Shown: positions 11,401 to 57,335 of the stretch, one piece after another
How the letters are laid out: every line of letters starts with the position of its first letter
Position numbering within the stretch: position 1 is the stretch's first letter
NCBI RefSeq assembly: GCF_964355755.1
Contig: NC_092673.1
Span: forward strand, 16,278,948 to 16,342,947
DNA length: 64,000 nucleotides
Direction of reading: 5' to 3'
From: Antedon mediterranea
Lineage: Eukaryota > Animalia > Echinodermata
The notes under the pieces: model-generated
Told to the model about the DNA's origin: nothing
Database searches by the model: none
The model's input: only the letters and a program-made list of their open reading frames with translations
Made by a program: the position numbers and the translations under genes

Positions 11401-14400
11401 GTAGGCCTATATTATTTATAGGTCTATAAAACATGAAAGAAATATTTCGTTACTGAGTGGATAAAGAGTATATCTAAAAATTGTTCTTCTTTGTACCTAT
11501 CCGCTTTCCCATCCCTCAACCCTAATGTTACATACAAAACACAAATTGGGTTTCTTTAAATGAGTCCAAATCAAACATTTGGACTCATTTTGTGATAAGT
11601 TTCTCCTTCGGAAGTAATTCCCAGGGTGCTAATTTTAGTTGACTACACAAATCATCGTGTCTATTTATTCGTTTCTGTAAACGACAATGTATTATAGTCC
11701 TGCGGTACGTACATTTGAAATCGCCAGTTTTGTTACGCTGAAATTACTGTGTATTCGAGAACCATCTGTGAGTACGACCTAGATGGTACGCTCGCTTCGC
11801 TCGCGTACCATCTATATTTAATATTTTATGTGTTGTACTGTATGTATGTTTTATCGAGGGCCCTGAATGATCAGTTCTATTAGGAACTGGATAGGCTACC
11901 CTCAGTAAATATGGTAATAAATAAATAAATAAAGACAAATTCTACATTCTAGGCTGATATTTACATTTTTTATTTTTTTACAATTAATATTTACAAAAGT
12001 GTAGCGTACACACATAATGGGGAACTAACGACTGGGGACAGTGGGCACGTTTTCTGGGCGTGCTTTAGTAGGACCAGAAAAGCGCCCTTATTGTAAGCCT
12101 TTAAAGGTGCAATTCCAGGTCTATATTGACAAAATTGTTTGACATCAGCCTAAACCATGGTGGGGCTTGAGTGATCTTTATTGTGTTTTGACAAACAGGT
12201 ATAAAAACTAAATTGGTTACTGGTCATAAAACAGAATATAAATAAAAACATTCAAAAAGTTCAAAGCATATTGAAAACTTACGATAGATGTTTTTAATCG
12301 CATTTCCTACTGCCTAATTCTGAATCATACCAGTTATTCATTTCAGGATTACTTTATTTTCACTTTACCCATTGAAACCATGCTAATCAACTGTATGTTG
12401 CTAGAATTTCAACGATTTAGATTCAGGGTCGCTGTCAAAAAATGTCTATATGTTTGGATGAGTTTGAGTTCCACAATTTTTTTTAGGACATAATTTAAAT
12501 TAATAACTGTAGTTGTTAACTGTATACATTATTATTATTATAGTATATTCAGAATGAATGATTTCTTGTACACAGTCACCCACAAGTGTTTGTAAGGCTT
12601 TGTATCACACAGAGCCTTTATATAACCTTATATCATTGGAAAAAAAAAGCTATGACTTTAAATATAGTGTTTTTTATGAAAATATATAATATGTAATATT
12701 TTTGTTTTTTGCATTTTTTTAGATTTACCAAGAAATGTTGATGAGCAATTTCAAACACAATTTCAGAAACAGACAAGTGACAAACAGAAAACAAAACTTC
12801 TTAAGCCAGAGAGTGGTAAGTTTAAGAATAAGAGCTGCTGTATGTTTTATGATTGTATCTATATATAATTTAACAGAATTGTGATTAAAATGGGATTTCA
12901 GTAAAGAGAGAATTAGACGCTAATGTTATTTAAAAAAACATTTCTGAGCGGTACTGCAAAAAGGCGAAAAGTGTGCAACTGATAACAAATAACAAATGGA
13001 GAGATTTTATTTATTATAAATAAAACAGTTGATTGTTTCCATTTAAAATACTGTAATAATGGAATGAAGCTAGTTTGCAGATTTATGGGGCATGCTTGCT
13101 TGATTTTTGCTTGATTGTTGATTTTTAGGTTATATGCATTATCATGCGATCACACGATTTCGCACGATTTAACGAAATCACGTTTGTAATCATATCTTCA
13201 CAAGCATGAATCACTTTTAAACAAAATTTGGTACTCATAAATTTCAGGTCATTATTTCATCATATGACAATACAATTACGTGCGTAGCGCACATAACGCA
13301 TGTGTACACGCGCTTAAAATTTCCAAAATTGTCAAAATTTATTTTCGATGAAATTACAGTACGTTTCAGGCAATTTTAAGCATTTAAATAATTGCGATGA
13401 GTGCACAGATTTTTGCACGCGCACTGCGCGTTAAACGTTAATGCGCACTCTTTTTGTCCGATTTCTGTTGTACAACCTTTCTTTAATAATATCATCATAT
13501 TTTATTCACTTTTCAACTCGAATTTGCGTTATATGAGCACGTCAAAAGTGACAGGCTACGCACGTGTAAGTTAACAAAATGGTGAAAATATGCTAAATTT
13601 TAAAAATAATATAGATCGTCAGAATGCTCGGGAACACATATTTTTTATTTCATTTTCTTGAAATGTATGTATCATATGTATGATTGATTTATGAAATTAA
13701 GAGTACAAAAGTTGATAAAGTCATCATTAATTGCATTTTAAATTTTTAAAAATGTATTTCGACAATCAAAAAATTATGACATTTTCTTAGGCCGATAACA
13801 AACTTTAACTTTCTTTCTTCAAAATAAAAGTTCATATATTAAAGTTAAAAGTATATAGTTTGACAGTGCATCATTTTTTAACATTTTTAAAGATGTCATC
13901 ATAGTAAAAAATACACGGAGGAATCTTTCTACAACTTTTAGTCAGTTGTGTATGGCTCGGTGGTCTGTGCTCGTGTCTATGGTATTCAAGGTACCGAGAT
14001 CGAGTCTCACATTGGGAAACGAAATAATATTTTTTTTATTATCCATATTGTTTGTTCAATTTTATTTTTTAGTGTATAGATTATACACATAATTTATAAT
14101 GAAATCTAGATAAAAAGTAAGTAATGTCTTTATTATTATGTAACAATGTGGTTAATGACATTATACGCAGAGGGATCTTTGATCGGATTGTGATACCGGC
14201 TATTGTATTCACGTTAGCAAGATCCTATATCTATATATAAGTTTATGTAAGGGCAAAATTCGATAAATCGCGGTTTATTTCTAGAATTTATACTCGATGG
14301 TATATAAAGTTGGTTCGTACTTTCGGTACTCATTTTAACCATCTGATGTAACCCTGTTTACTAATTAAATTGAGTTAAATAATTAGTTATTGACAATTAA

Positions 14401-15883
14401 AACAAATTCAGGTTCAACGATTTGCCCCAAATAGGGGTGTTTCGTGGTTGTGGTATTCACTGTATAATGGATGTCAATCTTAATAAATACCCACACACAA
14501 TAATACGAGGATGCTTCTCATTTTCCTATCTCCTCCTCAATAATTGTTTTTAATAGCTGAAAACTGGTTGAACAGCTCGAGTACAGCATCATAATGTTGA
14601 AGATTTTCTTTAAAAAATACTATTTTGATATGATAGATTTAATATACGTTTATACAAATGTTTTGATCTGGGATAAATGGAACATTCCAATCTCTGTTCC
14701 ACAAGTTTCTATTCCCTCAGGCGTCGTAAAGACAAGTACAGTCATAACAGAAATTCGATCCATTTTTTTTTTCAATCTGTGCGGATTACCAATAAAAAAA
14801 AAAAAAAAAATCATATCTTTAACAACGTATTAACAGGAATACTATCAAGTTTCCAACTCTTAACCAACGGAGGAACTACTTTTATTGTATTTGTCTCTAT
14901 AAATGTATCAATGTGTCATTTGGGTTCTTTCTCCTTTCTTTATTTGAATATTCTTAAAAACGGATTTACCATTATGGGCCCTCAACAAGACAAAACAACA
15001 AACAACAACAAAGAATTATAAAAATTAAAATAAAGATATGAACAAGATGATAATGACAAAGAAGTTTGTGTTAATAAGAATGACATTACTCTAACATTAT
15101 AATTAGTATCATATTTTAACACAAGAATATAATGCTGATTATTAAGACAAACATAAAGTGGGTAGTTTTGTTGTACTGTAGTTGAATTTCTAAAGCTGAT
15201 TATAGATATAGAAAGTTATTATAATGTTTCACAAATCTATCTGAAAACAATGATTTCAACAATAAATATAGCATAGCATAGTTAAATGTAGACAGTGAAC
15301 AATTTTATTCCCTGGTGGTAGTGTTTTCTCTGCTTTGGCCCTCCTCAGCACTCCACATTTTGCTGAAACAAATAAAAATATAAATTTACATCATTGTGTG
15401 AACAGGTGCCATGTTAAAATATATTAAATATAAATTAGACAAATTTCACAAATTTCATATATATCTTGTTTTTAAAATAGACTTATATATATATTATATA
15501 AAAATCATAGATAAAATCTCATTGATAAGATGATAAGTGAGGGTACCAATGCCTATTATTGTAGATAAAGGTTATATATAATAATATGATTGTTATCATG
15601 ATGATGATCAAGATATGATAATGACACTCGGGCTATATTCAGACATAGCCTCACCAGTCTTTGTAACCTACACCAGTATAAAAATATAGAAATTATTATT
15701 ATATGGTAGCATTATGAACATTAACAATTTTTGCCAAGTTGTGTCTATTAATATTTCTTTTTATGAAAAATATGTGTTAAATATTTTGTATGTTACATTT
15801 TTTAGATTTACCAAGTCTTGTTAGTGAACAGTTTGAGAAACTAATGGTTGAAGAACAGAAAACAAAGCTTAAACCAGTGATTG
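2153..15883 (+). CDS. Short exons encoding a low-complexity E/Q/T/K/S-rich region
   Basis: DLPRNVDEQFQTQFQKQTSDKQKTKLLKPES (two copies), DVQDGSVTSALPQSDIQGSQQ, DEQDDTEITTQENEQ, ELTKQLTSNSLSTVNEELQTQMKKGMIEEQERKLEAES, EVTKQFASDSSDTLSDEFQTQVVEQETKPEPES, DLPSLVSEQFEKLMVEEQKTKLKPVI. All are phase 1-1; the 25 nt and 32 nt exons together sum to 57 nt. Confidence 0.72.
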
Positions 15884-18800
15884 GTGAGTTTAAGAATAGT
15901 ATAAGGAGTTGTATGGTTCAATGTAACATATTGTGATTAAAATGGTATTTCAGTAGTGGACTTGTAGTAAGAATTTCATTCATTTTGTTTATCATATATT
16001 ATATAATATACAAATTCTTATAATTGCGTGCAACTTCAATAGCTTAAATTGTCCTTGGCTGTACTGCTATGATTATAAGTTTCTCAATCATGGTTCAAAA
16101 TTTGGCACAAAACATTTTCAATGAGTTGAAAGATTAAGAGAATAATTTAATTGGTCAGATGTTTTGTCTTATTCTGACGTAATTGCACTGTATACTCAGT
16201 TCAATGAGAACACTTTGCGAACAAATTTAAAAGTATTTCACAGATTGGACTCAAACCCATGACCTCCAGATTACTAGCATTGCGTATATACCTCCAGACC
16301 ACCGAGCTCAGTAGTCTAAAGAGGTTTGAGTCCCATCCACACACTCATTATAGTGTAAATATCTTTTTAAATGGTTACATATTATTTTAGTTACTGTTCA
16401 TGTATTAATTACAACAGATGGCATGGTAATGATACCACAACCAAAGTTGGCTGCAATAATATTAAAAAAATGAAAAACTATTTTTGTTATAAAATTAAAT
16501 AGAACTAACACTGTGCAAGTCAAGTTGAAATTAATGAATTGAGGAAAATAGATAATCTTACATTGCTGTATATAAATTGTTCTGCTAGTTAACTTAATGA
16601 CATGTTCAAATATAAGCTGTATTATCTACTTACTGTACAGTGTTAATATAATCTTGACAATAAACATGATTTGGTACTATTTTTGTTAAGAAGTTATACT
16701 CTAAAGAGAGCTAACATTGTAAGTTTGTGACGGAAGAAAGTATAATTGTATAATGAAGGAGATTGTAACAATTACTATATAACAAACACAATTAAAATAA
16801 TATTTCATTCTGCAGATCAAATGGAGTTAATTGTGGGATCCACAGGTGGAACTCTTCACCTTAAGGATGAAGACATAAAGTTGCAGATACAACCTGGAGC
16901 AATTGAAGGGGAGAAAGTTAAAGTATCTCTAGAACATTGTTTTGAGGAAACAGGCATGCCTGTACTTTATCCTCATGGATCAATAATATCACCTATTGTT
17001 AAATGTGGACCAGAAGGCACCAGCTTTAACAAGCCCATTTCATTGTCATTTCCACACGATGCTGTAAATGAAGAGAATTGGGAATTCACTCTACTTGTTA
17101 AAGATCGCATTCAAGATGAATGGAAACGTGATGAAAAGGACATACAGTTTACTTTAAAAAACGGTCGATGTTATATAACATTAATTCATTTCAGTTTTTA
17201 TGCACTAATTGGTCATGTAAGAAATTTCTTTGGTAAGAAAAGAATGTTGTTAGGAGTTTTTGGAAAGATGCTTGCAAATGATGAATATCAACTTCAAACA
17301 AGACTTTTTAAGCCGTCAGATAAACAGGTAATTACTATTTGTTGTTAAACTGTATTTAAATAAGGTAGTTCTTAATTTACTTACATTAACAAATATTTTC
17401 AAAATATAGATATAATAAATAGTTGTTTTGTCATATTTGGTCAATAACATTAACCTAGGGTAGTTAATTTGGCATAATATTTATTCTCTTATTTTTATAT
17501 ACCTTAAAATTATACAGTGTACAATCATGTATTGAATTGATTCCTGATCATTATAAAATATGCTGTAAAGAAGTAAACATGATGATTGCATTGTACACTT
17601 CCCTCATATAATTAATAAACTAATATACACAGTCACAAATAACATTAAGTATATGTATTTCAGACGATAAAAGAAGAGCACAGTGAAATTGGTGAGAAGC
17701 CTTTAATAACACCAGTAGATATACTATCTATGTATAAGGACATGAACATTACTGTAGCAGTATCACAACAGGAATGGAAAGTTCATGAGAAAAAAAAAGT
17801 AGGAATATCAATATTTTTAGTAGATTGGCATGGTAAAGAATTATGCATTAAACATGTTTTTGCAGGAATACCACATAACTTGAGAATTCATAATGATAAT
17901 TGATCAATAAATAAAATCTCTATTGCTATCCATATATTTAGCATACTGGATCACGATACTGAGTTAAGATCTTTAACTCTGTCTACACTGTCAAACTAGT
18001 TTGACAAAAAAAGTGTGATATATACAAATATGGTAGTGATATGCCCAAAAATGGTAGTGATATGACATCATCTTGTCCATATATAGGCACATTTTGTTTG
18101 ATAGTGTAGACAGAGCTTTAGAATAAAAATGCTGTCTTTTGATTAGTCTCGTTGGAGGATGCACACTTTTAATTGCAGTTAGCCATTTTTATATTTCTCA
18201 TTGAGAGAAAAACTCTTTGAATGAAAGCATTATCATAACATATAACACATAACATTATAAACAAAATTATTTAAAAAAAAATGTATTCACCAAAGCAAAT
18301 CAATTTAACTACAGTGCCTTTGAGCTGTAACTTTTTATCTCCTGGCTCCTTTTTTCCCTTAGACTGTCACTGCTGAATACCTATGGCGTGGAACACCATT
18401 GAAGAATTTTCTTTTAAAAAGAGGTAATTCATCAGCAAAAGTCCTAAAGGCAACAGTATCACTGTCACAAGAGTCAAATGATATTGATCCAGTGGAAGTG
18501 AATTGTAAGTATTTAAAATGCAACAACAATTAAAGTCTAAATTTAGAATGATTGTAATAAATAAAATGTACTATTCAAATACGGTAATCAGACATTACCA
18601 TCCATGACAATAACCACCCATTATTAACTGTACCATTGTTAGAATATGGGGTGGAATCAATATAGGTGTTGGCTTGTTTTTTATCTAGCACTACAATACA
18701 CTTTGGTTACATTGCTAGTTCCTAAAACACCTTAATTCTTCCGCATATCAAGCAGAGGATTTTTATTTCGAATATCGGTTGGGTGTTTTTTTTTCTAATT

Positions 18801-21800
18801 CTTACAGATTTTCTCATCTTAATTTGTTTATATTATTTAATTTCCAGTATAATATTACTAGTCAAGTGTTTCTATATATATATAAATCTGGTTTCTTTTT
18901 TTATTGAAAAAATGATTAAATATTTTATTTGTTATAGGTGATGTTGTGACATCAAGACTAAATCCAGGTATGTTATATTAATTGTGGTAATGATTAAGTC
19001 TGTTTTCATCTTGACCAGAGAAAAGGCATGAGCCAATACGTCTGAGGCAGATACTAGATGCAAGGGCTGCCAGCAGTTCTGATTTTGAATGCTTGATGGG
19101 ACCCCAACTCCCAGACGGTCTCCTATCCAAGCTCCAACCGGGTCCAAAGTTGCTTAACTTTGGTGATCAGACAGAAAACATGAAAACATGATATCATGTA
19201 GTGCATGAACACAAAACAAAAAACTGACTTCAATTTTTAGAATTTAATTTACCACCATTTCTATGGAAAATTGTACAATAAAGGGCAGCCTTCAGTACCA
19301 TTTTGTCTGGCACTATTAGACTGGTTCAGGGACGATTCGGCCCTGAGACGATTCGGCCCGGGACTATTCGGCCCACTTTTGGTGGGACGATTCGGCCCAC
19401 TTTTGGGCCGAAACATCCCACTTTGTGGGCCGAAACGTCTCAATTTAGACCAAATTCATATTCATTTTTTTGGGTATTTATCAAGTTTTTAAAGGTGTTT
19501 AACAATCCGTATTTTATTGATATTGACAATGTTGATATAATATATATAATAAATTACTAAAAAAAACGTAATTTTATATTCAATTTATTACTTCGAAAAC
19601 CTTGTTTATTTTGTGCATTCGCCAAGCGGCCAACAGAGGGCGTAACTTGTTTACATCGTTCGCGTGACTAAAAATTTATCATTTTCGACAATGTTTTCAA
19701 AATGTTCGCTTTATTGCATCTTTATCCCTAGTAGTACTACCCCATAGTCTCTCTGAAAATAAAGTTTGGGGAAAAAGCTTATTTTATGCTTATAAAATGC
19801 ATATCAAAGCCAATAAATTTAAGTGTGCCGAATCGTCTCAGGGCCGAAACGTCCCGGGCCGAATAGTCCCGGGCCGAATCGTCCCAGGGCCGAATCGTCC
19901 CAGGGCCGAATCGTCCCGGGCCGAATCGTCTCAGGGCCGAATCGTCCCGTTACCCTATTAGACGGATTTACTTGACCTTGGTTATAATCCTGCCCAATGT
20001 GAATAGTTATATGGTAAGTGCCAGCAACGTTGCAGGCATCTATACCGGCATTTTGCCAGCACTATGTGTGTCTTTTGGTGCAGGTGTATCAAACCAAGGC
20101 ATTAGGCAAGGTAATAACACTCTTTAGTTACAGTACTACTTACATTTATAAAAACATATGTAATAAATTTATGCTTATTTTTTATGCTTATTGTATGTGT
20201 TTTTAAGCATCAAGGAAAACCAATTTCATGTTCGCCTTGTTGTGTTCATGACAATAAAGATTATCTTTATTGTCTATTCTGAAATATCTTATCTTTATTC
20301 TGAAATATGTTCAAGATGAATAACATTTTATATTATTACATTTAAATTTATCTAATTTTACAATCAACATTAATTATGCATTTTACATTTTACGTAAGGC
20401 CAACATTTGAGTAGCAAAATCCAATTTATCTTGATCTCATTTGTCATCATATTTATTAATTGATTGATTGATTTTATTCGATATTCATACATAAAAGTTA
20501 AAATATACAATGTATAAAAAGAATACCTGGATAACCCATTAAGTCGACAAAAAAGTAAACTTATTTCCAATGGGGTCCAATCCGTAATAACTGAAAAGTG
20601 AGTGGTTGGACCTAGCACAATATATCATTAAGTATGACGCAGTAAAAATGAAAAAACAAGAAAATACATATAAGACAAGATAATATTAAAAAAAATAATA
20701 TTAAAAAATAACTGATATTCCAAGCTGTTCATTATTAAAATATTCTTTATGTTTTATTTTGAATGTTGCATTATTTTGTATTGATTTGAGTGAATTGGGG
20801 AGCCTGTTCCAGTCATGGATACCTAAGAAATAAAAATTTGTATCGTTAACGCCAGTAGCCTTAGGAGTGACAAAATTAAATGTTGTACCCCTGGTGAAAT
20901 GGTTATAATGATCAGAAATTAACAAAAAGTTATCCTTAAGGAAAGATGGCGTATTAAAGTTATAGCGAATTTTGTGAAAATAATTTAATCTTAAAAACTT
21001 ATTTCTGAGGCTGACATTAAGAAACCCAAGATCGGAAAGCTCTTTGGCACCTATGTGAGACCTGATCGGACCAACATTTAAAATGAAACGTGCCATCCTT
21101 TTTTGGGCAGTTTGTAATTTATGTTTAAGATTCTTATTGACACCGCCGTACCATGCCGAGGCAGAATAGTCAAATGTACATTGTATTAAAGCAGTGCTTA
21201 ATAGTTTACGACATTTTTTATTCAAGCACGAACTTTGCCTATGTAAAAACTTCAACCTTGACTTAACTTTACTGATAACACTAGTTGCAATAATATCACA
21301 TGATACATATTGGTCTAAATCAATACCCAAATATTTAACTTGCTTAGTACTTTTGATTGTACGGCCCATTAATTCCACAGAAAACTCTTTAACTTTGTTA
21401 AGCTTCGCTCTGCTACCAAAGAAAATACTTTCGGTTTTGCCCACATGTAATGATAATTTGTTTTCAGTTAACCAGTCCTGGCACTTAGCTAGGACAGTAC
21501 TTAATTTATGAGCGATTTTGGTGGCATCGTGATGGGAATACAGAATCGTAGAATCATCAGCATATAGAAATAATTGAACATCAGAATCAATACAAGAAGC
21601 AATATCATTTAAATAACATAGAAAAAGAATAGGGCCCAAGATGCTACCTTGCGGGAGTAACTATAAGAGGTTCAGAGCAGGTACCATTCACACTGACAAC
21701 TTGTGTACGGTTAGCGAGATAAGATTGAAACCAGTCAGTACACTTAAAACCCATGCATTTTAGCTTGTTAATTAAAATCACATGATCGACGATATCGAAA

Positions 21801-24800
21801 GCTTTTTGTAAGTCAATTAGAACCATTCCAGTAAGAAGGCCTTTGGACTTATTGTTTTTTAAACCGTCGATGAGATTTATGAGGTTGCTTTCAGTTGAAT
21901 GGGCCTGCCGAAAACCGGATTGATAGGCATAAAGTATATTATTTTTGGAAAGATACCTTTCAACTTGTATAGCTACATATTTTTCAAGAATCTTAGATAC
22001 CGTAGGCAGAATACTAATCGGCCGATAATTCTCAACACTTGTTTCTAGTATTTTTCTTAAATAGTGGGGTAACTTTAGCAGTTTTTAGATCATGAGGAAA
22101 ACAATTAGTTTTAAACAAAAGGTTAATGATATGAGCTATCGGTTCAGCCAAGATTATCGCACCGTCACGTAAAAATCTTGAGGGAATATTATCTAGACCG
22201 CTTTTACATTTAGGCTTTCGAGTTGAGTTTTAACAAATTCTATGGTAACAGGCTCTAGCTTAAACATTTTTCCTTTTAATTTAACATATGAAGATCGTTA
22301 GTGGACATGGTGGAAAAACCTATGCATTTTGGGAGTTTTTTGACGAGTGTTGACGCAACATTCGTGAAAAATTCATAAAACGAGAGGCAACGCCTTTTGG
22401 ACAGAAAGTTTTTTTACCATTGTCTGGCATCGAGAACGATTTTAGTGTTTGTTTTACATTTCTTCTCGTATCCGAGCTGTTTGAGGGTTTTCCATAATTT
22501 TTTAGGGTTGTCTTTATTTTCATCAATCTTATTGAGAAAATAATTAGATTTAGTTTTTTTGATCAGCCTAGAGGCACAATATGATTTGTATATATCTAGA
22601 TTAGATTTATCTTTCTTGAATTTTTTTAAAAGTGTGTCTCTTACTTTGATTTCATTGGCAATTTCGGAGGTAAACCAGGGTGCTATGTTTTGTTTAAGTC
22701 TAACTTTTTTTATTGGCGCTATTGAGTCGATCACCTTAATGATGATATCTTTAAGAGTTAACCACGCGATATTTACATCGTCTTATTAGTGACAACAGAC
22801 CAATCGATATCGTTAAGTGTTTCAAGATAGTTATTTACATTATAGTTTTTTAAAGATCGTAATTTAGCGGAGTTGTGTTCATTTTTGTGAACATGAGACT
22901 TAGGTATTTTTCTAGTGCAATAAATACGAAAATGGTCACTAAGGCCAATGTTAATTACTCCAGATTGCTTCACATTATTTTGTACATTAGTAACAATGTG
23001 GTCCAAACATGAACTTTTTTCTTTTTCCTATTCTAGTTATATCCTTATTAATAACATTACTAAAACCGTTTCTTATAAGACAATCATTATATCTTTGCGA
23101 TACTGGATTAATATTTAGATTACATATGTTAAAGTCACCAAGAACTTGAATTTCACTACTCTCTTTGATTTTTGATACAGTTTCTTCAAAGTTGTTCAGA
23201 AATAAAGATACATTCTGTTTTGGTGGGCGGTAGCATGTACCAATCACAATTTCCTTTGAACGAGGCAGATATATATTTATCCAAATTGCTTCAAAACCGT
23301 TGATATCCAGTTCATTTCTACGTGTGAAGGCGCGTTCATTTTTAACGTAGATAGAAACTCCACCACCAGACCGGTTTCTGTGCTTCCTGAGCGCTGTATA
23401 TCCATCAATTTTGATCTCGTTATCGGTGATGGATTCGTCCAGCCACGACTCGCTGATGGATATAACAGTAGCTTTGGTCTTTGATGCGATGTGCCTTAGT
23501 TCAGACATTTTATTAACTAATGACCGCGCATTAAGGTGAATAAAATGTAGGCCTTTGTTAAACACGTTGAATTCCTCGCTTAAATGCTCGTAAATGTATG
23601 TCCATCTTGTCGGGTTTCTGTCACATTATTTGCGTCGGCAATAAGTTCGTCATGAATATTAATGTCACTGATGCATTCATCATTCGGAAGCTGATTGAAG
23701 AGGCATTCTTGACATAACCAATTTTCTTTCGAGTTCCGTTGCTTATCATATACAATTTTAGTTATTCTTCCGCACTTGATATGGTAGATACATTTGCATT
23801 CAGTGCATTTTGCCCTGTGCGTTTTCGCAATCGGTTTTTTACAAGTTGAACATGGGTTTCTGATTGGTCCTGGGTTTGGAGAAACGTCTCCAGCGATAAT
23901 AATAAGTACCATCAGGAAACTTGGGTTTTTTAAGATTAAGCGGCAAACTGGATACGGTTTAGAAGATCCGTACATTGTCCAAAAGGGAGACATTATATTC
24001 AGGTTATCCGTATGAAAGTTTCTATGTAATAGTCAGCAGTTATCATATAGCATACTTAAAATAACATTTTGTAGTTTTTTAATTGTAGTAATAATAATTG
24101 TAAGGTATGATTTCACAACATTCCAAAAACTTAACTTTTCTACAGATGGGGAAGATGAAGATGAATCGCTCATCAAGCAACCAGGTATGTTCTATCTGTA
24201 CCCCTTTTTTAGTGAAGAACATAAACATGTGTATAGATACCTGTTTTTTTTTTTTTTCAGACTAAATATCTTTAATAATATCTGTTTTCTTAAAGATCTT
24301 TTTAGAAATTGTTACTTCTTTCATTCTACTTGTAATAATATGAAGCTACTGACATTTTTGTGCATGTTTTTAAAACCTGAATATTAATGATTGTATGTCT
24401 TTGCATTATAGACATCTCAGATGAGGATTTCTGGCAACTGTTGATTGATACAGCAGAGTGGTATGATCGACTTGGATATCTCAAGAAATTGAAACTTTTA
24501 TACAAAGACCATCTGAAGAAATCTAGAGTGGAGGTGGAGAGAGCTAATAGTGTTTGGGATCTGCTACAGGATTTAAGAGCCTTAGGAAGTTTGAGTCCAT
24601 CAAACCTTACTATTCTATATGACACAATAACAGTAACCAAGCAATTTGGCTTCAAGTCAAACGTTGAGAATCAACCACCAGAAGATATTAAGAAACATGT
24701 AGTATCAATGTTGACACCTTTCAGACAGAAGGTTTATCAACTTGGAGTAGAACTTACGAAGGATGAAGTATCAACACTTGCCAGGTTATTTAACAATGTA

Positions 24801-27580
24801 TTGGTAAAGACATATCAAGATAGCTGGAGTATGATTATGGACTTTGAACATAGAGGGATCATTGATGAGGATTTCACAAAGATGGTTGAGTTTCTTAGAG
24901 TTTTAGAACAAAATGGAATGACAAAAGCTAGGAAGATTTTCATTGATGGTTGGTTGATTTATTTGTTTGTATTTGTTGTTTAAATCATGGTTCATTGTTA
25001 AAACATATTCAGTACATACTGTAGTACACTTCAATCAAGTAAGAGTATTGTAACAAATTAAACATTTTAGGGAGATTCAAATTATTATGATGTCCCTGTC
25101 TGTCTGCTATTATAGCTGATTAAGGATATCAACCAACATTCGGTTAAATGGCAATTCAGCTGAATTAAATGACAAGTTAGTAAAATAACAATAATATGCT
25201 CAATGAGTCCAATGGAAAATGAACTGAACTGAAACGTATGTGTGTATTCCATGCTTTTATCCCTATCAATCAGATTGACCCAAACCTTTGGAACATAATA
25301 ATAATCTGCATTTTAAATTTGTGAATGCCTCTCAATTCCTACAAAGCCCAGCATACCATTTGAGGGTCAAAAGACCGACTCTGGGGCTGATTCAGATCTT
25401 TACTATTGCAAGAGGATCATTAAGTTGTATAAGAAAGCCACAGGTTGACAGCGTACCCATCACCACCTCCATGCCAATTAATGCACCCGGACACTTCATA
25501 AACTTGAGTTTAGATTATGTGACTTCTGCCTATCCCATTAATAACTTACTGAAACTAGAGAATGCAAAACTCCACCTACAATATAATTTTCCTACACATT
25601 AAAATCTCTCCCTGAGAAAAGTGGTTTGTTTTTTCAGTAAGGTAATTTGGCCTAATTGCACTGCATAACAAATTAATGTGAATTTTCCATGGTTGAAATC
25701 CTGCCTCAAATTGGGCTGAAGAAGGGAGTCTTTTTTAATCATTTCTTTTTTTTTAAATAATTTTTTTGTAAATTTTGACATTTGACCCTGCCTGTTCAAA
25801 ATTGAATTACATTATGATGGATAATTTTGGCCAAATTTCAGTTTAAAAGTGTGGCCTGGCAGGATATATAAAGAAAACATTTATAGTAGGTTGTGACCTT
25901 GACCTTTCATGGAAGCATCCACCTACGCAGAATGAAAAAAAAAAAACAAGAAGTCAACAAGTAGTCTACATAATTAGATTTATTCTAAATAAGTCTTAAG
26001 TATATATGTCTTCTGGTATAGGTATGTCTTCTGGTGCAGGCGCATCTTCTGGTGCAGGCGCATCTTCTGGTGCAGGCGCGTCTTCTGGTGCAGGTGTGTC
26101 TTCTGGTGCAGGTGTGTCTTCTGGTGCAGGTGTGTCTTCAGGTGCAGGTCTTTCGTCTGACACAGGTGAATGTCAAGGTAACTATCAAGGCACTAGAGCA
26201 ACACTGTACAGCAAAAAAATATATTATTGTTGATATTTAGCCAGGAGTTTTTGTATACAATATTAAAATAGACTAGAAATCTTTAATACCTTTCTATACT
26301 AAGTGATTGTAGTTGTTTATGTAGGGTGTAATCTAAATTGATTAAAATCTATATTTATCAGGCAACCTTAAAATAACTTGGAAGTTTTTCTTTGACTTTC
26401 TCCAAATCTATTCTGTTCATTTCCTTTTCAGGTAGACATTATACATTAATCCTGTTTGTTGCTTATTGTTCACACAATATCAGCTTAGATAATTAAACTT
26501 TCCAAAATGTTATCACAAATGTTCGTTTAAAGTTTATATGAATGTTTCTATGTAATAGTCAGCAGTTATCGTATAGCATATACTTAAAGACGTATTGTCC
26601 CCCAAAAACATGAAAAATGAAGATTAATTAAATCAGACTTTGAATAGGTTGTTATGTAGTTTTAAAAAAGTAAATCACTTCCGAAGAAAAAAAACGGAAA
26701 AAAATAATGTTTTCACTTATAAAATAACATGATAAATGGTTAAATTCAACCAAAAATCCATTGGCTGGCAGCCAATTTTACCATTTTTTGCTTTAACTTC
26801 CAGTTTTTTCAGGTAAATAATTTTTTTTTTCGATCCAATTTTTGCTCAAAGTCAATAACTATTAGTGACATTAAAATGGCATATTCAACAACAAAAATTT
26901 AAAAAAAATATTTTTCAGGGGGACAAATCAACAAACATCCAACCTATTTATTTTTTATTTAATCAAATTTATTTAATTTTAACATACTATTAAATGTTTT
27001 AGGTTTAACTGTGTTCATACTTTGTTAAGGGTTAGGGTGTTTAATTGTTTAATTATTTCTCACCATATCTATTACTTAATGAGCTTGCTTTGTTGTTATT
27101 TCAGGTATGCATCATGGCGGGTAAGTATTTTCCACATATGTACTGTTATTTGATCAAATTAAAATATAAGTTTGTTAATAAATTGGCAATTTCTGTGTGT
27201 GATTTACAGAATACATTAAACTTTTATTTTCATTTCATTTATTTTGCCATATAAAATGTATAAAAAAACAATTAAAAGAAAACAAAACCAATAAAAAAGA
27301 AAAAGATTACTCTCTGCCTCCCCACAAAGGCAGACAGGATTACCAAAAGCATAAGTAAACACTGTCTAGTGGCTCTCGTCAAGGTCAATACAGGGCTGGT
27401 GATAATCAACTAAAGCCTGTTTTCTAGTCTACGTTATTCAATTTCAACACGATTGTTTGAAAACAATCAAGTTGAAAGAAACAACAATTTTAATGTTAAT
27501 ACTTTATTAGAATTTTAATTATTTAATTGTACCTTGTTATTTCTAGTCAAAAAGAAAAGAGACGTTGCAAGTTGTTATAA
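2153..27580 (+). CDS. Spliced gene, 5'-incomplete: acidic repeat region - ZU5(HFS) - UPA-like - tandem DED-like - GS linker - polybasic CaaX
   Basis: AG/GT-bounded, phase-compatible exons: 2153-2245, 3602-3664, 3958-4002, 4184-4297, 4514-4612, 6694-6718, 7993-8024, 12723-12815, 15806-15883, 16816-17327, 17664-17798, 18363-18504, (20060 or 20084)-20110 uncertain, 24146-24184, 24412-24948, 26022-26177, 27105-27120, 27547-27581 (TAA at 27578-27580). The frame stays open across all joins. Confidence 0.8.
2713..2800 (-). mobile_element. 5S rRNA-derived SINE head (SINE3-like) or 5S pseudogene
   Basis: Minus strand acggcc...cttgtctgatcaccaaagttaagca...cttggatggtagaccatctggga aligns with the 5S A-box and C-box region. 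Confidence 0.75.
3286..3550 (+). mobile_element. DINE-1/pearl/Tsp-like (Helentron-associated) non-autonomous repeat fragment
   Basis: (TG)n microsatellite followed by a repeated core ccacagtttttatccrattctcaccaaa and ggtcaaggtca motifs. Confidence 0.5.
4982..6119. mobile_element. Tiny palindromic element (about 52 bp) with 7-bp TSD, split by a MITE
   Basis: gtattat-CAGGGAAGAGTTAAATTACAAT...ATTGTAATTTAA[insert]CTCTTCCCTG-gtattat. Confidence 0.7.
5024..6106. mobile_element. PIF/Harbinger-type MITE
   Basis: TIR of about 45 bp starting GGCCCTGTTCAGACCCATGGCGTTAGACCG; TAA TSD on both sides. Confidence 0.88.
7388..7956. repeat. Minisatellite, 59-66 bp unit, about 9 copies
   Basis: gggagtggggagggtttgctagaaccat...acgagtctgttatccttattata repeated. 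Confidence 0.95.
8113..8734 (+). mobile_element. Solo LTR (4-bp TSD, Gypsy-like)
   Basis: TGTAATATAA...TTATATTACA ends; TSD tcag; AATAAA at 8661. The empty site is visible in the paralogous intron at about 4351-4370. Confidence 0.85.
8830..10400 (+). mobile_element. 5'-truncated CR1/L2-group LINE (RT domain, ORF 8892-10355)
   Basis: NYRPISVL, QSGFRP, FIDLRKAFD, GIPQGSNLGP, FADD, HKHLG motifs. Upstream KSAGHDGI...IIAPFLTQII is in another frame (frameshift near 8955). No endonuclease domain. Confidence 0.93.
10482..11815 (+). mobile_element. Non-autonomous Helitron-like element (other copies: 1-1245, 5'-clipped by the window; 14230-~14700, diverged)
   Basis: 5' end a^TCTATATATAA is shared with 14230. 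A GC-rich hairpin tagatggtacgc-N11-gcgtaccatcta lies near the presumed 3' end. The terminus reads CTAT rather than CTRR, so the 3' boundary is uncertain. Confidence 0.55.
10571..13000 (+). repeat. Copy 2 of the segmental duplication, carrying a duplicate exon at 12723-12815
   Basis: Identity to 1-2430 ends after aacaaatgga. Confidence 0.95.
13952..14010 (+). other. tRNA-like A/B-box segment inside an unclassified repeat (about 13125-14229)
   Basis: tggctcggtgg ... gagatcgagtctc; no full cloverleaf. Confidence 0.35.
14230..14700 (+). mobile_element. Diverged third copy of the Helitron-like 5' region
   Basis: Colinear with 10482-~10950 with many substitutions. Confidence 0.65.
16244..16308 (-). 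mobile_element. tRNA-derived SINE head
   Basis: Minus strand agctcggtggtc...ggaggtcatgggtttgagtcc (A and B boxes). Confidence 0.5.
16816..17327 (+). CDS. ZU5 domain exon (UNC5/ankyrin/PIDD type) and start of UPA
   Basis: VGSTGGTL...KLQIQPGAI...ISPIVKCGPEGTSFNKPISLSFPHDA...W...YITLIHFSFYALIG matches the ZU5 pattern; bounded by tgcag and gtaatt. Confidence 0.9.
17664..18504 (+). CDS. Two exons of a UPA-like beta domain (17664-17798, 18363-18504)
   Basis: In frame after ZU5: TIKEEHSEIGEKPLITPVDIL...ITVAVSQQEWKV and TVTAEYLWRG...KVLKATVSLSQ. UPA is inferred from position and beta-strand pattern. Confidence 0.65.
17975..18117. mobile_element. Short MITE (a half-copy lies at about 48315-48350)
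   Basis: ctctgtctacactrtcaaa ... tttgatagtgtagacagag inverted termini in tta context. Confidence 0.7.
19105..19180 (-). mobile_element. Second 5S-derived SINE head, within an intron block paralogous to 2490-2960
   Basis: Same 5S-like boxes; flanks 18880-19320 align with 2500-2935. Confidence 0.72.
19322..19954. mobile_element. Mutator/foldback-like MITE with subterminal repeats
   Basis: Arrays of gggacgattcggccc and gggccgaatcgtccc at the two ends; 9-bp TSD ctattagac; empty paralogous site at about 2927-2940. Confidence 0.85.
20460..24005 (-). mobile_element. Degenerate CR1-group (Crack/L2-like) LINE: 2A-like - PHD - APE - RT
   Basis: Frameshifted ORFs: GDVSPNPGP plus a Cys/His finger (23580-23993); HLNARSL, SESWL, GDFN (22987-23565); DHI, SDH; IDLQKAFD; YADD (20701-21639). 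3' AATAAA(ATCA)n tail at about 20460. Confidence 0.93.
24412..24948 (+). CDS. Tandem death effector domain (DED)-like exon
   Basis: Two helical units of about 80 aa: FWQLLID...LKKLKLLY...ERANSVWDLLQDL...LSPSNLTIL and LTPFRQKVYQLGVELTKDEV...SMIMDFEHRGII. These follow the caspase-8/cFLIP DED1-DED2 pattern; the RxDL motif is not conserved. Confidence 0.72.
26022..26177 (+). CDS. Exon made of 18-bp repeats encoding a (SSGAGA/V)n linker
   Basis: About 8 copies of TCTTCTGGTGCAGGY...; phase 1-1; donor caag/gtaact. Confidence 0.7.
26588..26929. mobile_element. TTAA-flanked (Kolobok-like) MITE; related inverted copy at 43715-43945
   Basis: ttaa-AGACGTATTGTCCCCC...GGGGGACAA; right end degraded. Confidence 0.55.
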
Positions 27581-27581
27581 G
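27105..27581 (+). CDS. Terminal micro-exons (16 nt and 35 nt) encoding GMHHGGQKEKRRCKLL*
   Basis: tttcag/GTATGCATCATGGCGG/gtaagt joined to ttctag/TCAAAAAGAAAAGAGACGTTGCAAGTTGTTATAAG/gtatag. Confidence 0.72.
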
Positions 27582-27584
27582 GTA

Positions 27585-27830
27585 TAGTATTTAACTTAAA
27601 ATTTAAATTTGTTTCTAAAGTCATGCATTGTTTTAGTATTTAACTTTAAATTTGAATTTGTTTCTAAAGTCATGCATTGTTTTAGTATTTAACTTTAAAT
27701 TTGAATTTGTTTCTAAAGTCATGCATTGTTTTAGTATTTAACTTTAAATTTGAATTTGTTTCTAAAGTCATGCATTGTTTTAGTATTTAACTTTAAATTT
27801 GAATTTGTTTCTAAATTCATTGCATTGTTT
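27585..27830. repeat. Minisatellite, 49 bp, about 5 copies
   Basis: tagtatttaactttaaatttgaatttgtttctaaagtcatgcattgttt. Confidence 0.95.
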
Positions 27831-28677
27831 TTCTATTCAAAGACTAATGTAGTTTCAAAATGTAAGAAATCATTTGTCTTTTTTCCTACAAAACCTATAA
27901 AATGCTTTTTGTTGTAGTCATTTGCAGTATTTTAAAACAACTTTAAATGAAAGCACTCAAGAATATTTCTAAAAAGATGAGGATTTATGAAACATTTTTC
28001 TCTTTTAGATTACTGGTTGGTAGTTACTGTATATATGATGGATTAACTGCTGTTGGTGGCTGCAGTATCTGGTGTGTACATAGTGACCAGGTCTCTTACT
28101 CAGTCAAAAAATGCAACAGATGAAAAACAGTACACTCTTCACCAATCTAACAGTAGATTTCATACATTTTAAAGGCATTGTATGGATAATATTGAAGATA
28201 GATGTGAAATTATAAAGATATGAAAGCATATGGAAGTTTTGACACAATGACAAATGAATAAAGATCTAGAGAGTTATTGCCATCAGAGTCAAAGTTACAA
28301 TCCGCTACCACCACCCCTCTTTTTATAAAAAACCAAATAAACAAAAAAATTATTTTCCCCTCAAGAAATTCAGCCATGCTTGTCAGATGAAACGACAACA
28401 TTGATTTAAGAATTTTTGTAAAATACAGCTTTCTTAAAAAAGAACTTTACAAATTTCAGTTTATTACCATTCCAAATTCTATTATTGATTTTATAAAAAG
28501 AATAAAAAAATAAAATTAGACTTTTTAGTTTGCCTCAAGGAAATTGTGTAATTGACCAAAAAAGGACCAAAGAAAAAAGAAATCATTAAATGAAATAAAG
28601 TAGGTAATGCAATGCCTGTATTATGTATTTAAATAATAACTCATGTTTGATATTTAGTTTTATTAAGCTTAACATCC

Positions 28678-29160
28678 TGTAGTAAACAGTTGTCAACATA
28701 TAGAAGCTGTAACTCAGTTGTCAATTGTGCACTCAATGCTGTAGTAGACAGTTGTCAACATATTGAAGCTGTAACTCAGTTGTCAATTGTGTACACAATG
28801 CTGTAGTAGACAGTTGTCAACATATTGAAGCTGTAACTCAGTTGTCAATTGTGTACTCAATGCTGTAGTAGACAGTTGTCAACATATTGAAGCTGTAACT
28901 CAGTTGTCAATTGTGTACTCAATGCTGTAGTAGACAGTTGTCAACATATTGAAGCTGTAACTCAGTTGTCAATTGTCTACTCAATGCTGTAGTAGACAGT
29001 TGTCAACATATTGAAGCTGTAACTCAGTTGTCAATTGTGTACTCAATGCTGTAGTAGACAGTTGTCAACATATTGAAGCTGTAACTCAGTTGTCAATTGT
29101 GTACTCAATGCTGTAGTAGACAGTTGTCAACATATTGAAGCTGTAACTCAGTTGTCAATT
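28678..29160. repeat. Minisatellite, 62 bp, about 8 copies (two related halves of about 31 bp)
   Basis: ctgtagtagacagttgtcaacatattgaag + ctgtaactcagttgtcaattgtgtactcaatg. Confidence 0.95.
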
Positions 29161-29645
29161 CTACTCATTTATTTTGTCATTTCATATTGAAAACCAATTA
29201 ATCTTATAAAAATAGTAAGCATGTCTGTCTGTCCATTTTCAAATAGTATTGTATGATTACAGTTTAGATATCTGTTACATAATTAGCATACACATTTTGA
29301 TTGGTAGGATATGGGAACAAAAAGTGGGTTTTTTTTAATATTGATACAATATTTAGTTGGATGGAAAATTAGAGATGCCACTGCAGCTATAAACATGTTA
29401 AAGTAAAATAAAAATTTGATAAATGAAGAAAATTCAAATTAATAAGAGGACGCGATGGGGTATGAGGGAAGCAAATGGGTGTTTGATATAATGATACTGA
29501 TGATAATAATGTTGCTATTTTTTTGTATTAATAATGCGGTAGTTATGATTAATGATGCTAAATTGTATTTTAAATCAAGAAATCCTGTAATAATTTAGAC
29601 CCATGACAATCTAAGTGTATTGTAACCAAGACAACAACATTTTCC

Positions 29646-31090
29646 ACACAATTTGTTGTGGATAAATCCAAAAGCTGTAGGAATCACTGTATTTATAGTA
29701 CAGGGATTTTAACAACACAATTTGTTGTGGATAAATCCAAAAGCTGTAGGAATCACTGTATTTATAGTACAGGAATTTTAACAACACAATTTGTTGTGGA
29801 TAAATCTAAAAGCTGTAGGAATCACTGTATTTATAGTACAGGGATTTTAACAACACAATTTGTTGTGGATAAATCTAAAAGCTGTAGGAATCCCTGTATT
29901 TATAGTACATGGATTTTAACAACACAATTTGTTGTGGATAAATCCAAAAGCTGTAGGAATCACTGTATTTATAGTACAGGGATTTTAACAACACAATTTG
30001 TTGTGGATAAATCTAAAAGCTGTAGGAATCCCTGTATTTATAGTACAGGGATTTTAACAACACAATTTGTTGTGAATAAATCCAAAAGCTGTAGGAATCA
30101 CTGTATTTATAGTACAGGGATTTTAACAACACAATTTGTTGTGGATAAATCCAAAAGCTGTAGGAATCACTGTATTTATAGTACAGGGATTTTAACAACA
30201 CAATTTGTTGTGGATAAATCTAAAAGCTGTAGGAATCATTGTATTTATAGAACAGGGATTTTAACAACACAATTTGTTGTGGATAAATCTAAAAGCTGTA
30301 GGAATCACTGTATTTATAGTACAGGGATTTTAACAACACAATTGTTGTGGATAAATCTAAAAGCTGTAGAAATCACTGTATTATAGTACAGGGATTTTAA
30401 CAACACAATTTGTTGTGGATAAATCTAAAAGCTGTAGGAATCCCTGTATTTATAGTACAGGGATTTTAACAACACAATTTGTTGTGGATAAATCCAAAAG
30501 CTGTAGAAATCACTGTATTTATAGTACAGGGATTTTAACAACACAATTTGTTGTGGATAAATCCAAAAGCTGTAGGAATCACTGTATTTATAGTACAGGG
30601 ATTTTAACAACACAATTTGTTGTGGATAAATCCAAAAGCTGTAGGAATCACTGTATTTATAGTACAGGGATTTTAACAACACAATTTGTTGTGGATAAAT
30701 CTAAAAGCTGTAGGAATCCCTGTATTTATAGTACAGGGATTTTAACAACACAATTTGTTGTGGATAAATCTAAAAGCTGTAGGAATCCCTGTATTTATAG
30801 TACAGGGATTTTAACAACACAATTTGTTGTGAATAAATCCAAAAGCTGTAGGAATCACTGTATTTATAGTACAGGGATTTTAACAACACAATTTGTTGTG
30901 GATAAATCTAAAAGCTGTAGGAATCACTGTATTTATAGTACAGGGATTTTAACAACACAATTTGTTGTGGATAAATCTAAAAGCTGTAGGAATCACTGTA
31001 TTTATAGTACAGGGATTTTAACAACACAATTTGTTGTGGATAAATCTAAAAGCTGTAGGAATCACTGTATTTATAGTACAGGAATTTTTA
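29646..31090. repeat. Minisatellite, 69 bp, about 21 copies
   Basis: cacaatttgttgtggataaatcyaaaagctgtaggaatcactgtatttatagtacagggattttaacaa. Confidence 0.97.
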
Positions 31091-31220
31091 CAAAAAATGA
31101 CCAAATTGATAATGATGTTATTATATTAGTGATGTGCAATTGTCAGTCTGTGTTAACTGTCACCCTTTTTAATTCATATTTTGCAATATCAATGTTGTCA
31201 TCCTTCATGCTGCTTTTTGG

Positions 31221-33000
31221 TTTGGCCTACTGATTAATAGACCTACTGTAAATATATAATAAGTCAATTAACATTACTATTTTGTTCTCTCTTGGTTAAA
31301 GTTTGGCCTACTGTACTTAATAGGCCTATAATAAATATAATAAGTCAATTAACATTACTATTTTGTTCTCTCTTGGTTAAAGTTTGGCCTACTGTACTTA
31401 ATAGGCCTATAATAAATATAATAAGTCAATTAACATTACTATTTTGTTCTCTCTTAGTTAAAGTGTGACCTACTGTACTTAATAGGCCTAACAATAAATA
31501 TAATAAGTCAATTCACATTAATATTTTGTTCTCTCTTGTTTAAAGTTTGGCCTACTGTACTAAATAGGCCTAACAATAAATATAATAAGTCAATTAACAT
31601 TACTATTTTGTTCTCTCTTGGTTAAAGTTTGGCCTACTGTACTTAATAGGCCTATAATAAATATAATAAGTCAATTAACATTAATATTTTGTTCTCTCTT
31701 AGTTAAAGTTTGGCCTACTGTACTAAATAGGCCTAACAATAAATATAATAAGTCAATTAACATTACTATTTTGTTCTCTCTTGGTTAAAGTTTGGCCTAC
31801 TGTACTTAATAGGCCTATAATAAATATAATAAGTCAATTAACATTACTATTTTGTTCTCTTTTAGTTAAAGTGTGACCTACTGTACTTAATAGGCCTAAC
31901 AATAAATATAATAAGTCAATTCACATTAATATTTTGTTCTCTCTTAGTTAAAGTGTGACCTACTGTACTTAATAGGCCTAACAATAAATATAATAAGTCA
32001 ATTCACATTAATATTTTGTTCTCTCTTGTTTAAAGTTTGGCCTACTGTACTAAATAGGCCTAACAATAAATATAATAAGTCAATTAACATTACTATTTTG
32101 TTCTCTCTTGGTTAAAGTTTGGCCTACTGTACTTAATAGGCCTATAATAAATATAATAAGTCAATTAACATTAATATTTTGTTCTCTCTTAGTTAAAGTT
32201 TGGCCTACTGTACTAAATAGGCCTAACAATAAATATAATAAGTCAATTAACATTACTATTTTGTTCTCTCTTAGTTAAAGTTTGGCCTACTGTACTAAAT
32301 AGGCCTATAATAAATATAATAAGTCAATTCACATTAATATTTTGTTCTCTCTTGGTTAAAGTTTGGCCTACTGTACTAAATAGGCCTATAATAAATATAA
32401 TAAGTCAATTCATATTAATATTTTGTTCTCTCTTAGTTAAAGTTTGGCCTACTGTACTTAATAGGCCTAACAATAAATATAATAAGTCAATTCACATTAA
32501 TATTTTGTTCTCTCTTATTTAAAGTTTGACCTACTGTACTAAATAGGCCTATAATAAATATAATAAGTCAATTCATATTAATATTTTGTTCTCTCTTAGT
32601 TAAAGTTTGGCCTACTGTACTTAATAGGCCTAACAATAAATATAATAAGTCAATTAACATTACTATTTTGTTCTCTCTTAGTTAAAGTTTGACCTACTGT
32701 ACTTAATAGGCCTACAATAAATATAATAAGTCAATTAACATTACTATTTTGTTCTCTCTTAGTTAAAGTTTGGCCTACTGTACTTAATAGGCCTAACAAT
32801 AAATATAATAAGTCAATTAACATTACTATTTTGTTCTCTCTTAGTTAAAGTTTGGCCTACTGTACTTAATAGGCCTACAATAAATATAATAAGTCAATTC
32901 ACATTAATATTTTGTTCTCTCTTAGTTAAAGTGTGGCCTACTGTACTAGGCCTAACAATAAATAGAATAAGTCAATTAACATTAATATTTTGTTCTTTCT
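31221..33000. repeat. Minisatellite, 81-82 bp, about 22 copies
   Basis: aagtcaattaacattactattttgttctctcttrgttaaagtttggcctactgtacttaataggccta... Confidence 0.97.
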
Positions 33001-41075: not shown

Positions 41076-41145
41076 TTAGGCTATTTTATGCTCAAATTAA
41101 ATGAAGTGTAGTCCTGGACTATTTTCCCTTCAAAATAGGCAACAT

Positions 41146-57304: not shown

Positions 57305-57335
<31 letters not shown>

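Follow-up and report, generated by a model that had tools for sequence, protein, structure and literature searches.

A 64,000-nucleotide stretch of the genome of the crinoid Antedon mediterranea (NC_092673.1, positions 16,278,948 to 16,342,947; hereafter the window) contains a series of exons that likely form one crinoid gene, judging by splice signals and homology, encoding a charged N-terminus, a ZU5-UPA module, a tandem death effector domain (tDED), a Gly/Ser linker and a basic C-terminal end with a CaaL motif. As far as sequence comparison can tell, the domains are real, the transcript that joins them is likely but unproven, the architecture is common to uncharacterized crinoid models, and the predicted lipid anchor is likely private to this gene and of traceable origin. 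Taken together, the best reading, in which our confidence is about even, is that the product is an autoprocessed, prenyl-anchored CARD8-like scaffold that would signal via crinoid tDED partners.

The exon chain

The window is AT-rich (GC 27-40%). An earlier note on this DNA had claimed a frame-consistent splice chain reaching KEKRRCKLL-stop, and this was borne out: the eight exons (16816-17327, 17664-17798, 18363-18504, 24146-24184, 24412-24948, 26022-26165, 27105-27120 and 27547-27580; + strand, as are all exons of the gene described below) have AG/GT ends throughout, and the chain from 16816 is translated without a stop as far as CKLL-stop. The listed exons hold, but a micro-exon at 18938-18967 had been omitted. 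Likewise, the limits given for the feature (16816-27580) enclose real exons but begin too late; 16816 was rejected as the gene start since it is an internal phase-1 acceptor with two in-frame exons upstream (12723-12815 and 15806-15883). With three added exons, the extended chain amounts to 585 codons with no internal stops.

Splice sites were scored with generic splice frequencies, and percentiles refer to all GT (donors) in the window. The donors of the chain fall in the 89th-100th percentile of window GT and the acceptors in the 91st-99.9th, except for the acceptor at 17664 (61st percentile); the boundaries of its exon are fixed by the ends of the tblastn matches of 10 relatives. Five read runs (X1-X5; X1 without 27500-28180) cover introns and exons alike and behave as DNA, which makes them uninformative on splicing.

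The first of the upstream exons (12723-12815; phase 1-1) encodes a charged, low-complexity linker that matches amino acids (aa) 13-42 of the relative P0009 at 87% (acceptor 97.6th, donor 99.7th percentile), and has a near-identical copy at 2153-2245. The second (15806-15883; phase 1-1) directly precedes the ZU5 exon and matches aa 43-72 of P0009 at 83% and aa 1-13 of P0010 at 92%. The N-terminus encoded by these exons is likely disordered. Further upstream, exons between 2153 and 8024 (+), the linker and tail exons of a paralogous unit, match the 3′ half of P0153 (77-100%) and are frame-compatible with the exon at 12723, so that the gene may begin further upstream. In that unit the post-UPA micro-exon region comes directly after a linker exon, and the ZU5-UPA cassette seems to have been deleted there.

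A ZU5-UPA module with a candidate cleavage site

The claim of a ZU5 domain carrying an HFS motif was confirmed. The phase 1-0 exon at 16816-17327, which encodes ZU5 and the first UPA strands, matches Pfam ZU5 (PF00791; E 2.9e-18), with PF00791 the only match and no FIIND match in the Pfam scan, and is 49-75% identical to eight A. mediterranea proteins; its best match in the PDB is UNC5B (3g5b; E 3.4e-7). In the alignment to UNC5B, the Phe of the His-Phe-Ser codons (17187-17195) falls on a Leu just before the last ZU5 strand, placing the predicted autoproteolysis site between Phe and Ser. Before the last ZU5 strand is also where CARD8 and PIDD are cleaved, and Ser, Thr or Cys serve as nucleophiles in autoproteolysis of the ZU5 type (PMC3210808, in part). 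Among nine complete ZU5 copies of eight relatives, the motif reads HFS in four, HFC in three, HFT in one and SFT in one, so that the third position is Ser, Thr or Cys in 9/9; variation limited to these residues suggests selection for the cleavage chemistry. Against this, a single partial copy of ZU5 in P0006 has IFN at the motif. On balance, we consider it rather probable that the protein self-cleaves at HF/S.

The UPA-like region claimed after ZU5 is likewise present, by homology. Its middle exon (17664-17798; phase 0-0) is the one whose boundaries are set by the 10 relatives, and its last exon (18363-18504; phase 0-1) matches P0006 at 87% and P0007 at 79%. The region is alignable to P0010 at 60%, and P0010 itself matches Pfam UPA (E 6.5e-5, below the curated cut-off). 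In a structural alignment to the ZU5-UPA of UNC5/UNC5CL, the Atlas model of P0009 reaches a template modeling score (TM-score) of 0.53-0.55. A phase 1-1 micro-exon follows (18938-18967; acceptor 97th, donor 99.7th percentile); an equivalent peptide stands directly after UPA in P0164, and a paralogous copy lies at 2555-2584, within a segment (2490-2937) that is 86% like 18874-19324. No NTPase and no leucine-rich repeat (LRR) was found, no transmembrane helix was found before ZU5 in the upstream exons, and the window, in which the 5′ end of the gene is undefined, holds only one ZU5 exon, not two as in PIDD1.

A tandem DED of the caspase-8 and cFLIP type

Between UPA and the tDED lies an acidic micro-exon (24146-24184; phase 1-1; acceptor 98.8th, donor 99.7th percentile), for which tblastn with the relatives under comparison gave no match. 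The two DED-like units claimed for 24412-24948, a single symmetric phase 1-1 exon, passed the check for a death fold. Pfam DED matched two stretches (E 1.2e-10), and an 11-row trimmed profile gave 26 matches in the PDB, with the prodomains of caspase-8 and cFLIP first (E 1.7e-6 to 1.8e-5). A 53-row alignment profile gave no PDB matches at E 0.01, probably diluted by full-length rows. The single-sequence fold was unusable (predicted local distance difference test, pLDDT, 46.5); the AlphaFold model built from the 53-row alignment instead reached a pLDDT of 92.4 and a predicted TM-score (pTM) of 0.87. Upon Foldseek comparison of this model, the top 10 rows were all tDED structures of caspase-8 or cFLIP (TM-score 0.64-0.78), and all 27 of the listed rows were tDEDs of caspase-8, cFLIP or vFLIP, 4zbw being the highest (TM-score 0.79). 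The modeled fold thus identifies the exon as a rigidly packed tandem DED of the caspase-8/cFLIP type. There is no caspase or pseudo-caspase domain in the spliced chain or in the open reading frames (ORFs) of the window. A ZU5-tDED complex predicted without alignments scored 0.00, which speaks neither for nor against an interaction.

The earlier note had proposed a PIDD/CARD8-like platform with a caspase-8/FADD-type output. The PIDD/CARD8-like mode is still the best reading, but the output is only one option, because the module is promiscuous (NACHT, Roc-COR, RIG-I, Rel and TIR proteins carry it) and because of its surface. The Phe-Leu patch of caspase-8 DED2 (F122/L123) reads Arg-Leu in the window tDED, and mostly Gly/Ala/Gln-Leu in 206 modules of the family. 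As the F122 position is Arg in this tDED and usually small or polar in the family, canonical chain elongation is not assured. Such a caspase-less tDED could instead act as an inhibitor or decoy, like cFLIP-short or viral FLIPs, capping assemblies or sequestering tDED-bearing NLRs or caspases at the membrane. The lack of a catalytic domain, the fold matches to cFLIP and vFLIP and the Arg itself fit this idea, as do the nearest modules, which sit on Roc-COR and NACHT proteins and not on caspases (in a quick tree of 44 rows chosen out of the 206 modules and read for nearest neighbors only): the window tDED is 87% identical to that of P0023, and 69-74% identical to modules on NACHT and Roc-COR proteins. 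We regard a decoy as improbable, since the retained cleavage motif and UPA make up the layout that is activating in CARD8, NLRP1 and PIDD1 (PMC11874512, PMC9162469, both in part), and since the crinoid caspase-8-like protein P0026, judged by eye, also does without Phe-Leu, so that the family may use other surfaces.

One gene or neighboring modules

The ZU5 and tDED exons matched 12 proteins, all of them from A. mediterranea (49-76% identity), the 30 looked up by name are all from A. mediterranea or Anneissia japonica, and every relative with its source shown (38/38) is a crinoid protein; most of the closest relatives lie on a single 36.2-Mb contig. A search with the tDED profile yields 293 representatives at E up to 1e-3. 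In the best 150 of these, the tDED is combined with NACHT, Roc-COR, TIR, kinase, ubiquitin, ankyrin, RIG-I helicase, Rel homology and caspase domains (the Pfam architecture scan covered 81/81 of P0075-P0155, and 34/62 of P0013-P0074, these being the longer ones, together 115/143 new proteins). The caspase-8-like protein P0026 of Anneissia (XP_033126911) and a 'CASP8 and FADD-like' protein (P0134) both carry the crinoid module; in P0026, two tDED modules (four DEDs) precede the caspase domain. In other members, a crinoid tDED is found at the N-terminus of a RIG-I-like helicase in place of CARD-CARD (P0074; XP_033103796) and at the N-terminus of a Rel-homology, NF-kB-like protein (P0072; XP_071955940). 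Two models wire a Roco GTPase to death folds, as Roc-COR-tDED-ZU5-UPA-tDED (P0008; XP_071965522) and as tDED-Roc-COR-tDED-transmembrane segment (P0002; XP_071948801).

That no characterized protein has the combination claimed here holds insofar as its five known carriers are uncharacterized, but the architecture is not unique. ZU5-UPA followed by tDED is found in five A. mediterranea RefSeq models, P0005, P0008, P0009, P0010 and P0012. Members of the crinoid tDED expansion in this species include XP_071947400, XP_071948765, XP_071948739, XP_071952298 and XP_071965522. P0005 is colinear with aa 57-504 of the spliced product (48.5% over 480 columns; E 5.5e-141), and P0012 and P0008 are likewise colinear across both parts. 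UPA fragments before a tDED are present in P0032 and P0151; the reversed order, tDED before ZU5-UPA, is seen in P0011 and P0164. The pairing of the ZU5-UPA subtype of the window with its tDED subtype was found in no single model. The closest match to the last UPA exon (P0006; XP_071948780) and the closest match to the tDED (P0023; XP_071948779) have consecutive accessions and equal-sized contigs, which suggests conserved adjacency of UPA and tDED, although the two are separate models.

Several observations weigh against a single gene. All junctions rest on splice signals, homology and predicted RefSeq models, and the 5′ end and start codon of the gene model are undefined. The A. mediterranea annotation puts the closest ZU5-UPA and tDED matches in two models, and the RefSeq models of the relatives P0004, P0006 and P0007 end through intron read-through. 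In P0164, the nearest ZU5-UPA relative, the micro-exon runs directly into a GS-type repeat with the tDED at the N-terminus, so that skipping of the tDED is possible. The window may hold neighboring modules of a churning tandem cluster, with ZU5-UPA and tDED-GS on separate transcripts or as decaying fragments and the long protein a construct. The split between P0006 and P0023 would fit this explanation, and so would the read-through by which P0007 ends at the same UPA donor; all linker exons are phase 1-1, so that nearly any order would be in frame, and turnover is evident from a LINE (long interspersed nuclear element) insertion, a 2.4-kb duplication at 99.6% and an upstream unit without ZU5-UPA and the transmembrane exon. 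However, the tDED begins at a phase-1 acceptor with no start exon identified for it, and the donor that closes the UPA exon is a good one. In five relatives, three of them colinear across both parts, ZU5-UPA and then tDED stand in one model. Every coding exon and splice site of the chain is intact, unlike the LINE and the exon at 28009, which are broken. We thus think separate modules unlikely, and hold it rather probable, on these splice signals and homologies, that all exons belong to one transcript.

The ZU5-UPA module is a three-exon phase 1-1 cassette and the tDED one symmetric phase 1-1 exon, which would explain the shuffling, and the window gene is one of the products of an expansion by exon shuffling in crinoids.

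The C-terminal tail

A Gly/Ser/Ala linker exon built on an 18-bp repeat follows the tDED (26022-26165). Its boundaries are ambiguous, every listed option being phase 1, and P0023 has the same Gly/Ser repeat directly after its tDED, so that the tDED-to-GS join is seen there. Within 26007-26168, each 18-bp unit contains an acceptor and a donor, all in phase 1, and therefore the length of the linker could vary via alternative splicing. Next comes a 16-nt micro-exon (27105-27120) with the best splice scores in the chain (99.6th and 100th percentile); contigs from runs X2 and X4 contain diverged copies of it. It changes the phase from 1 to 2 and thereby sets the frame of the tail: phase-2 entry into the exon at 27547-27581, which is placed by splice signals and by similarity to the exon at 7993-8024, yields QKEKRRCKLL-stop, a basic stretch and a CaaL motif.

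In 1800 trials of acceptor and frame on both strands of the window, 22 permissive and seven strict CaaX endings were obtained, and only the 27547 ending combined at least three Lys/Arg with a strict CaaX, by criteria chosen after the motif had been seen. CaaL motifs, CKVL among them, are substrates of geranylgeranyltransferase I (GGTase-I; PMC11152559, in part). The ending of the predicted splice form fits this pattern, having a terminal Cys-a1-aliphatic-Leu and upstream basic residues. The prenylation signal had been claimed beforehand, and it does stand on the predicted splice form, but it is private and derived and hangs on a moderate acceptor. A basic CaaL end occurs in 0/155 relatives, three of which have a Cys at -4 without adjacent basic residues, and the 27547 acceptor scores 0.0 (91st percentile) while acceptors at 27210, 27330 and 28009 score higher; these points count against an anchor. 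With the motif and its setting weighed together, we lean toward a prenylated protein, with geranylgeranylation as the predicted modification.

The tail of P0153 suggests where the motif came from. Three exons make it up: a micro-exon of phase 1-2, an exon of phase 2-1 whose last residue is Lys, and a transmembrane exon. The first two of these were found in the upstream unit at 6694-6718 and 7993-8024; the third was not found in the window. A C-terminal transmembrane segment is present in 8/155 relatives. The 27547 exon resembles the exon at 7993-8024 (a similarity reached by 18/5000 shuffles) and has a donor 1 nt past its stop, giving the layout of the P0153 tail. This donor, and the decayed transmembrane-type exon from 28009, mean that 27580 did not hold as the end of the feature. 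Read through into 28009 with stops written as X, the tail aligns without gaps to P0010 (4/2000 shuffles) and also matches P0002 (9/2000), and in the P0010 alignment the X falls on the Lys that precedes the transmembrane exon. As two of the eight relative tails pass the shuffle test and six have no match to the read-through, we regard the homology evidence for the tail as moderate. The exon at 28009-28262, with a stop and an apparent frameshift, is hydrophobic (Kyte-Doolittle 1.96, reached by 81/1809 null windows), contains AATAAA at 28257, the first after the tail stop, and is likely a terminal exon of the 3′ untranslated region (UTR). It appears from these alignments that the CaaX arose when a Lys codon in the next-to-last exon of a transmembrane tail became a stop, and that the ancestral transmembrane exon decayed into 3′ UTR and survives at 28009.

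The same evidence can be turned around: ZU5-UPA-tDED may be one gene whose CaaX is incidental, the result of a nonsense change or of another acceptor being used, leaving a soluble or fading paralog without a prenyl anchor. The stop located where a relative has the Lys before its transmembrane exon, the lack of a shared CaaL end and the stronger competing acceptors are all consistent with this. In the contig of run X5, 10 intron letters differ while both tail exons are unchanged, which makes an error of assembly less likely (although the assembly may derive from this very sample), but about one change would be expected in 50 nt at the intron rate (an estimate), too few to show selection. On the other side, compared with the exon at 7993-8024 the tail has more basic residues, together with the Cys and the terminal Leu-Leu, a combination matched in 0/1799 other null trials. 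A stop 1 nt before the last junction would escape nonsense-mediated decay, and the 27330 acceptor lies within an interspersed repeat. An incidental CaaX therefore seems to us a minority explanation, and the prenyl anchor is the reading that we carry forward.

Surroundings of the gene

Turnover is visible throughout the window. Positions 1-2430 equal 10571-13000 at 99.6%, a direct duplication with a period of 10,570 that includes the exon at 12723-12815 and is either a recent tandem duplication or a haplotype artifact of the assembly. The UPA-tDED intron contains a broken LINE (20701-24032, - strand; a PHD-like finger, endonuclease and reverse transcriptase in several frames) and, at 19329-19949, an insertion flanked by inverted repeats. 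LINE-type retrotransposon copies with reverse transcriptase also lie at 8862-10355 (+) and 55890-58854 (-). A very high-copy short element at 17977-18125, with joints that skip it, resembles a miniature inverted-repeat transposable element. At 63429-63782 (+), ankyrin-repeat-like fragments interrupted by stops resemble the N-terminus of the Ank-Roc-COR-tDED protein P0057 and may be the next cluster member. At 52050-53165 (+), two ORFs (134 and 182 aa) resemble fragments of a SAM-domain or transposon-associated gene. Minisatellite arrays at 28677-33001, 41142-41547, 44248-46013 and 59869-62648, with periods of 62, 69, 82, 18, 85, 31 and 71, are a source of spurious ORFs.

Discussion

If the gene is read as above, cleavage at F/S would produce a 403-aa fragment of UPA, tDED, linker and CaaX that remains associated with the N-terminal ZU5 piece and is kept silent by it. 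CARD8 is activated by degradation of its disordered N-terminus (PMC7594595, in part); by analogy, loss of the N-terminal piece, through degradation or a cut of the unstructured N-terminus by a pathogen protease, would free the lipid-anchored fragment. UPA promotes death-fold filaments (PMC11874512, in part), and oligomers of the freed UPA may then seed the assembly of tDEDs at the membrane. The death domain (DD) of UNC5B and that of ankyrin are folded back onto ZU5 (PMC9162469, in part). The partners would be other crinoid tDED carriers, most plausibly the tDED-bearing caspase-8-like protein, and the output would be cell death or NF-kB signaling; we consider an activating output through a tDED caspase an even chance. 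The anchor would have arisen when a Lys-to-stop change in the penultimate exon of the transmembrane tail created the CaaX, with the transmembrane exon then decaying to 3′ UTR.

In its layout the predicted protein comes closest to CARD8, with an unstructured-looking N-terminus, a ZU5-UPA in which a cleavage motif precedes the last strand of ZU5, and then a death fold. However, its ZU5 is of the UNC5 type (PF00791) with HFS, whereas CARD8 has a FIIND with SFS, and it has a tandem DED and a predicted C-terminal membrane anchor in place of a CARD. CARD8 or NLRP1 proper was thus rejected, there being no FIIND-type ZU5 and a DED instead of a CARD. With UNC5CL, it shares a single ZU5-UPA-death-fold module that is autoproteolytic and membrane-anchored (PMC10084454, in part), cleavage and anchor being predicted in our case, and RefSeq names the relatives UNC5C-like or UNC5B-like. 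UNC5CL differs in having a transmembrane helix before the module and one DD; the anchor of the window gene is C-terminal, and therefore would stay on the active fragment, unlike that of UNC5CL. UNC5 or UNC5CL proper was rejected because of the tDED and because no transmembrane segment was found in the upstream exons. The HF/S autoproteolysis motif and the predicted C-terminal release of UPA and death fold are shared with PIDD1, which differs in having two ZU5 domains, a DD and LRRs, the last of these not found here; PIDD1 proper was rejected on the single ZU5 exon in the window, the tDED and the charged linkers upstream. The rigid tandem-DED fold likens the protein to the prodomains of caspase-8, cFLIP and vFLIP, but the window tDED is C-terminal, about 20% identical and without the DED2 Phe-Leu patch, and caspase-8/10 or cFLIP-long proper was rejected since no caspase or pseudo-caspase domain follows.

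With the crinoid tDED expansion the gene shares the ZU5-UPA cassette, the tDED exon family, the domain order of five models and, in some members, a C-terminal anchor, there transmembrane; the basic CaaL end sets it apart. The expansion itself, lineage-specific and with a constant death fold and variable partners, resembles the death-fold shuffling of marine invertebrates, such as that of DED-NACHT proteins in amphioxus (PMC2575513, in part) or the fusion of DED/TRADD-N to FIIND and UPA-ZU5 in marine invertebrate expansions (PMC8195603, in part). The parts of these two papers available to us describe no ZU5-UPA-tDED protein and no prenyl anchor, those of PMC11359984 and PMC12909245 hold nothing on this architecture, and in the literature searched neither a ZU5-UPA-tandem-DED protein nor a crinoid DED expansion is described. 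The alignment legend of PMC3210808 contains FIIND proteins labeled 'ded', which may bear on novelty.

No principle is overturned by this finding, since marine invertebrates are known to shuffle death folds and the domain order already exists in uncharacterized RefSeq models. A bolder version, which we hold only tentatively and consider less likely than not, is that the innate immune wiring of crinoids has largely been rebuilt around one mobile tDED exon, and that the window gene would be their CARD8 equivalent, a tripwire set by self-cleavage, its freed UPA-tDED fragment nucleating a receptor-free, caspase-8-activating filament on the membrane, caught just after a transmembrane-to-prenyl swap via one nonsense change. 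The characterized ZU5-UPA switches signal through a DD or a CARD. With a tandem DED as the output, a tripwire of the CARD8/PIDD type would be coupled directly to caspase-8-type assemblies, bypassing death receptors and FADD, in the crinoids, a little-studied sister group of the other echinoderms. If our reading is true, the locus also allows the replacement of a transmembrane anchor by a prenyl anchor to be traced, and it points to an undescribed crinoid tDED network.

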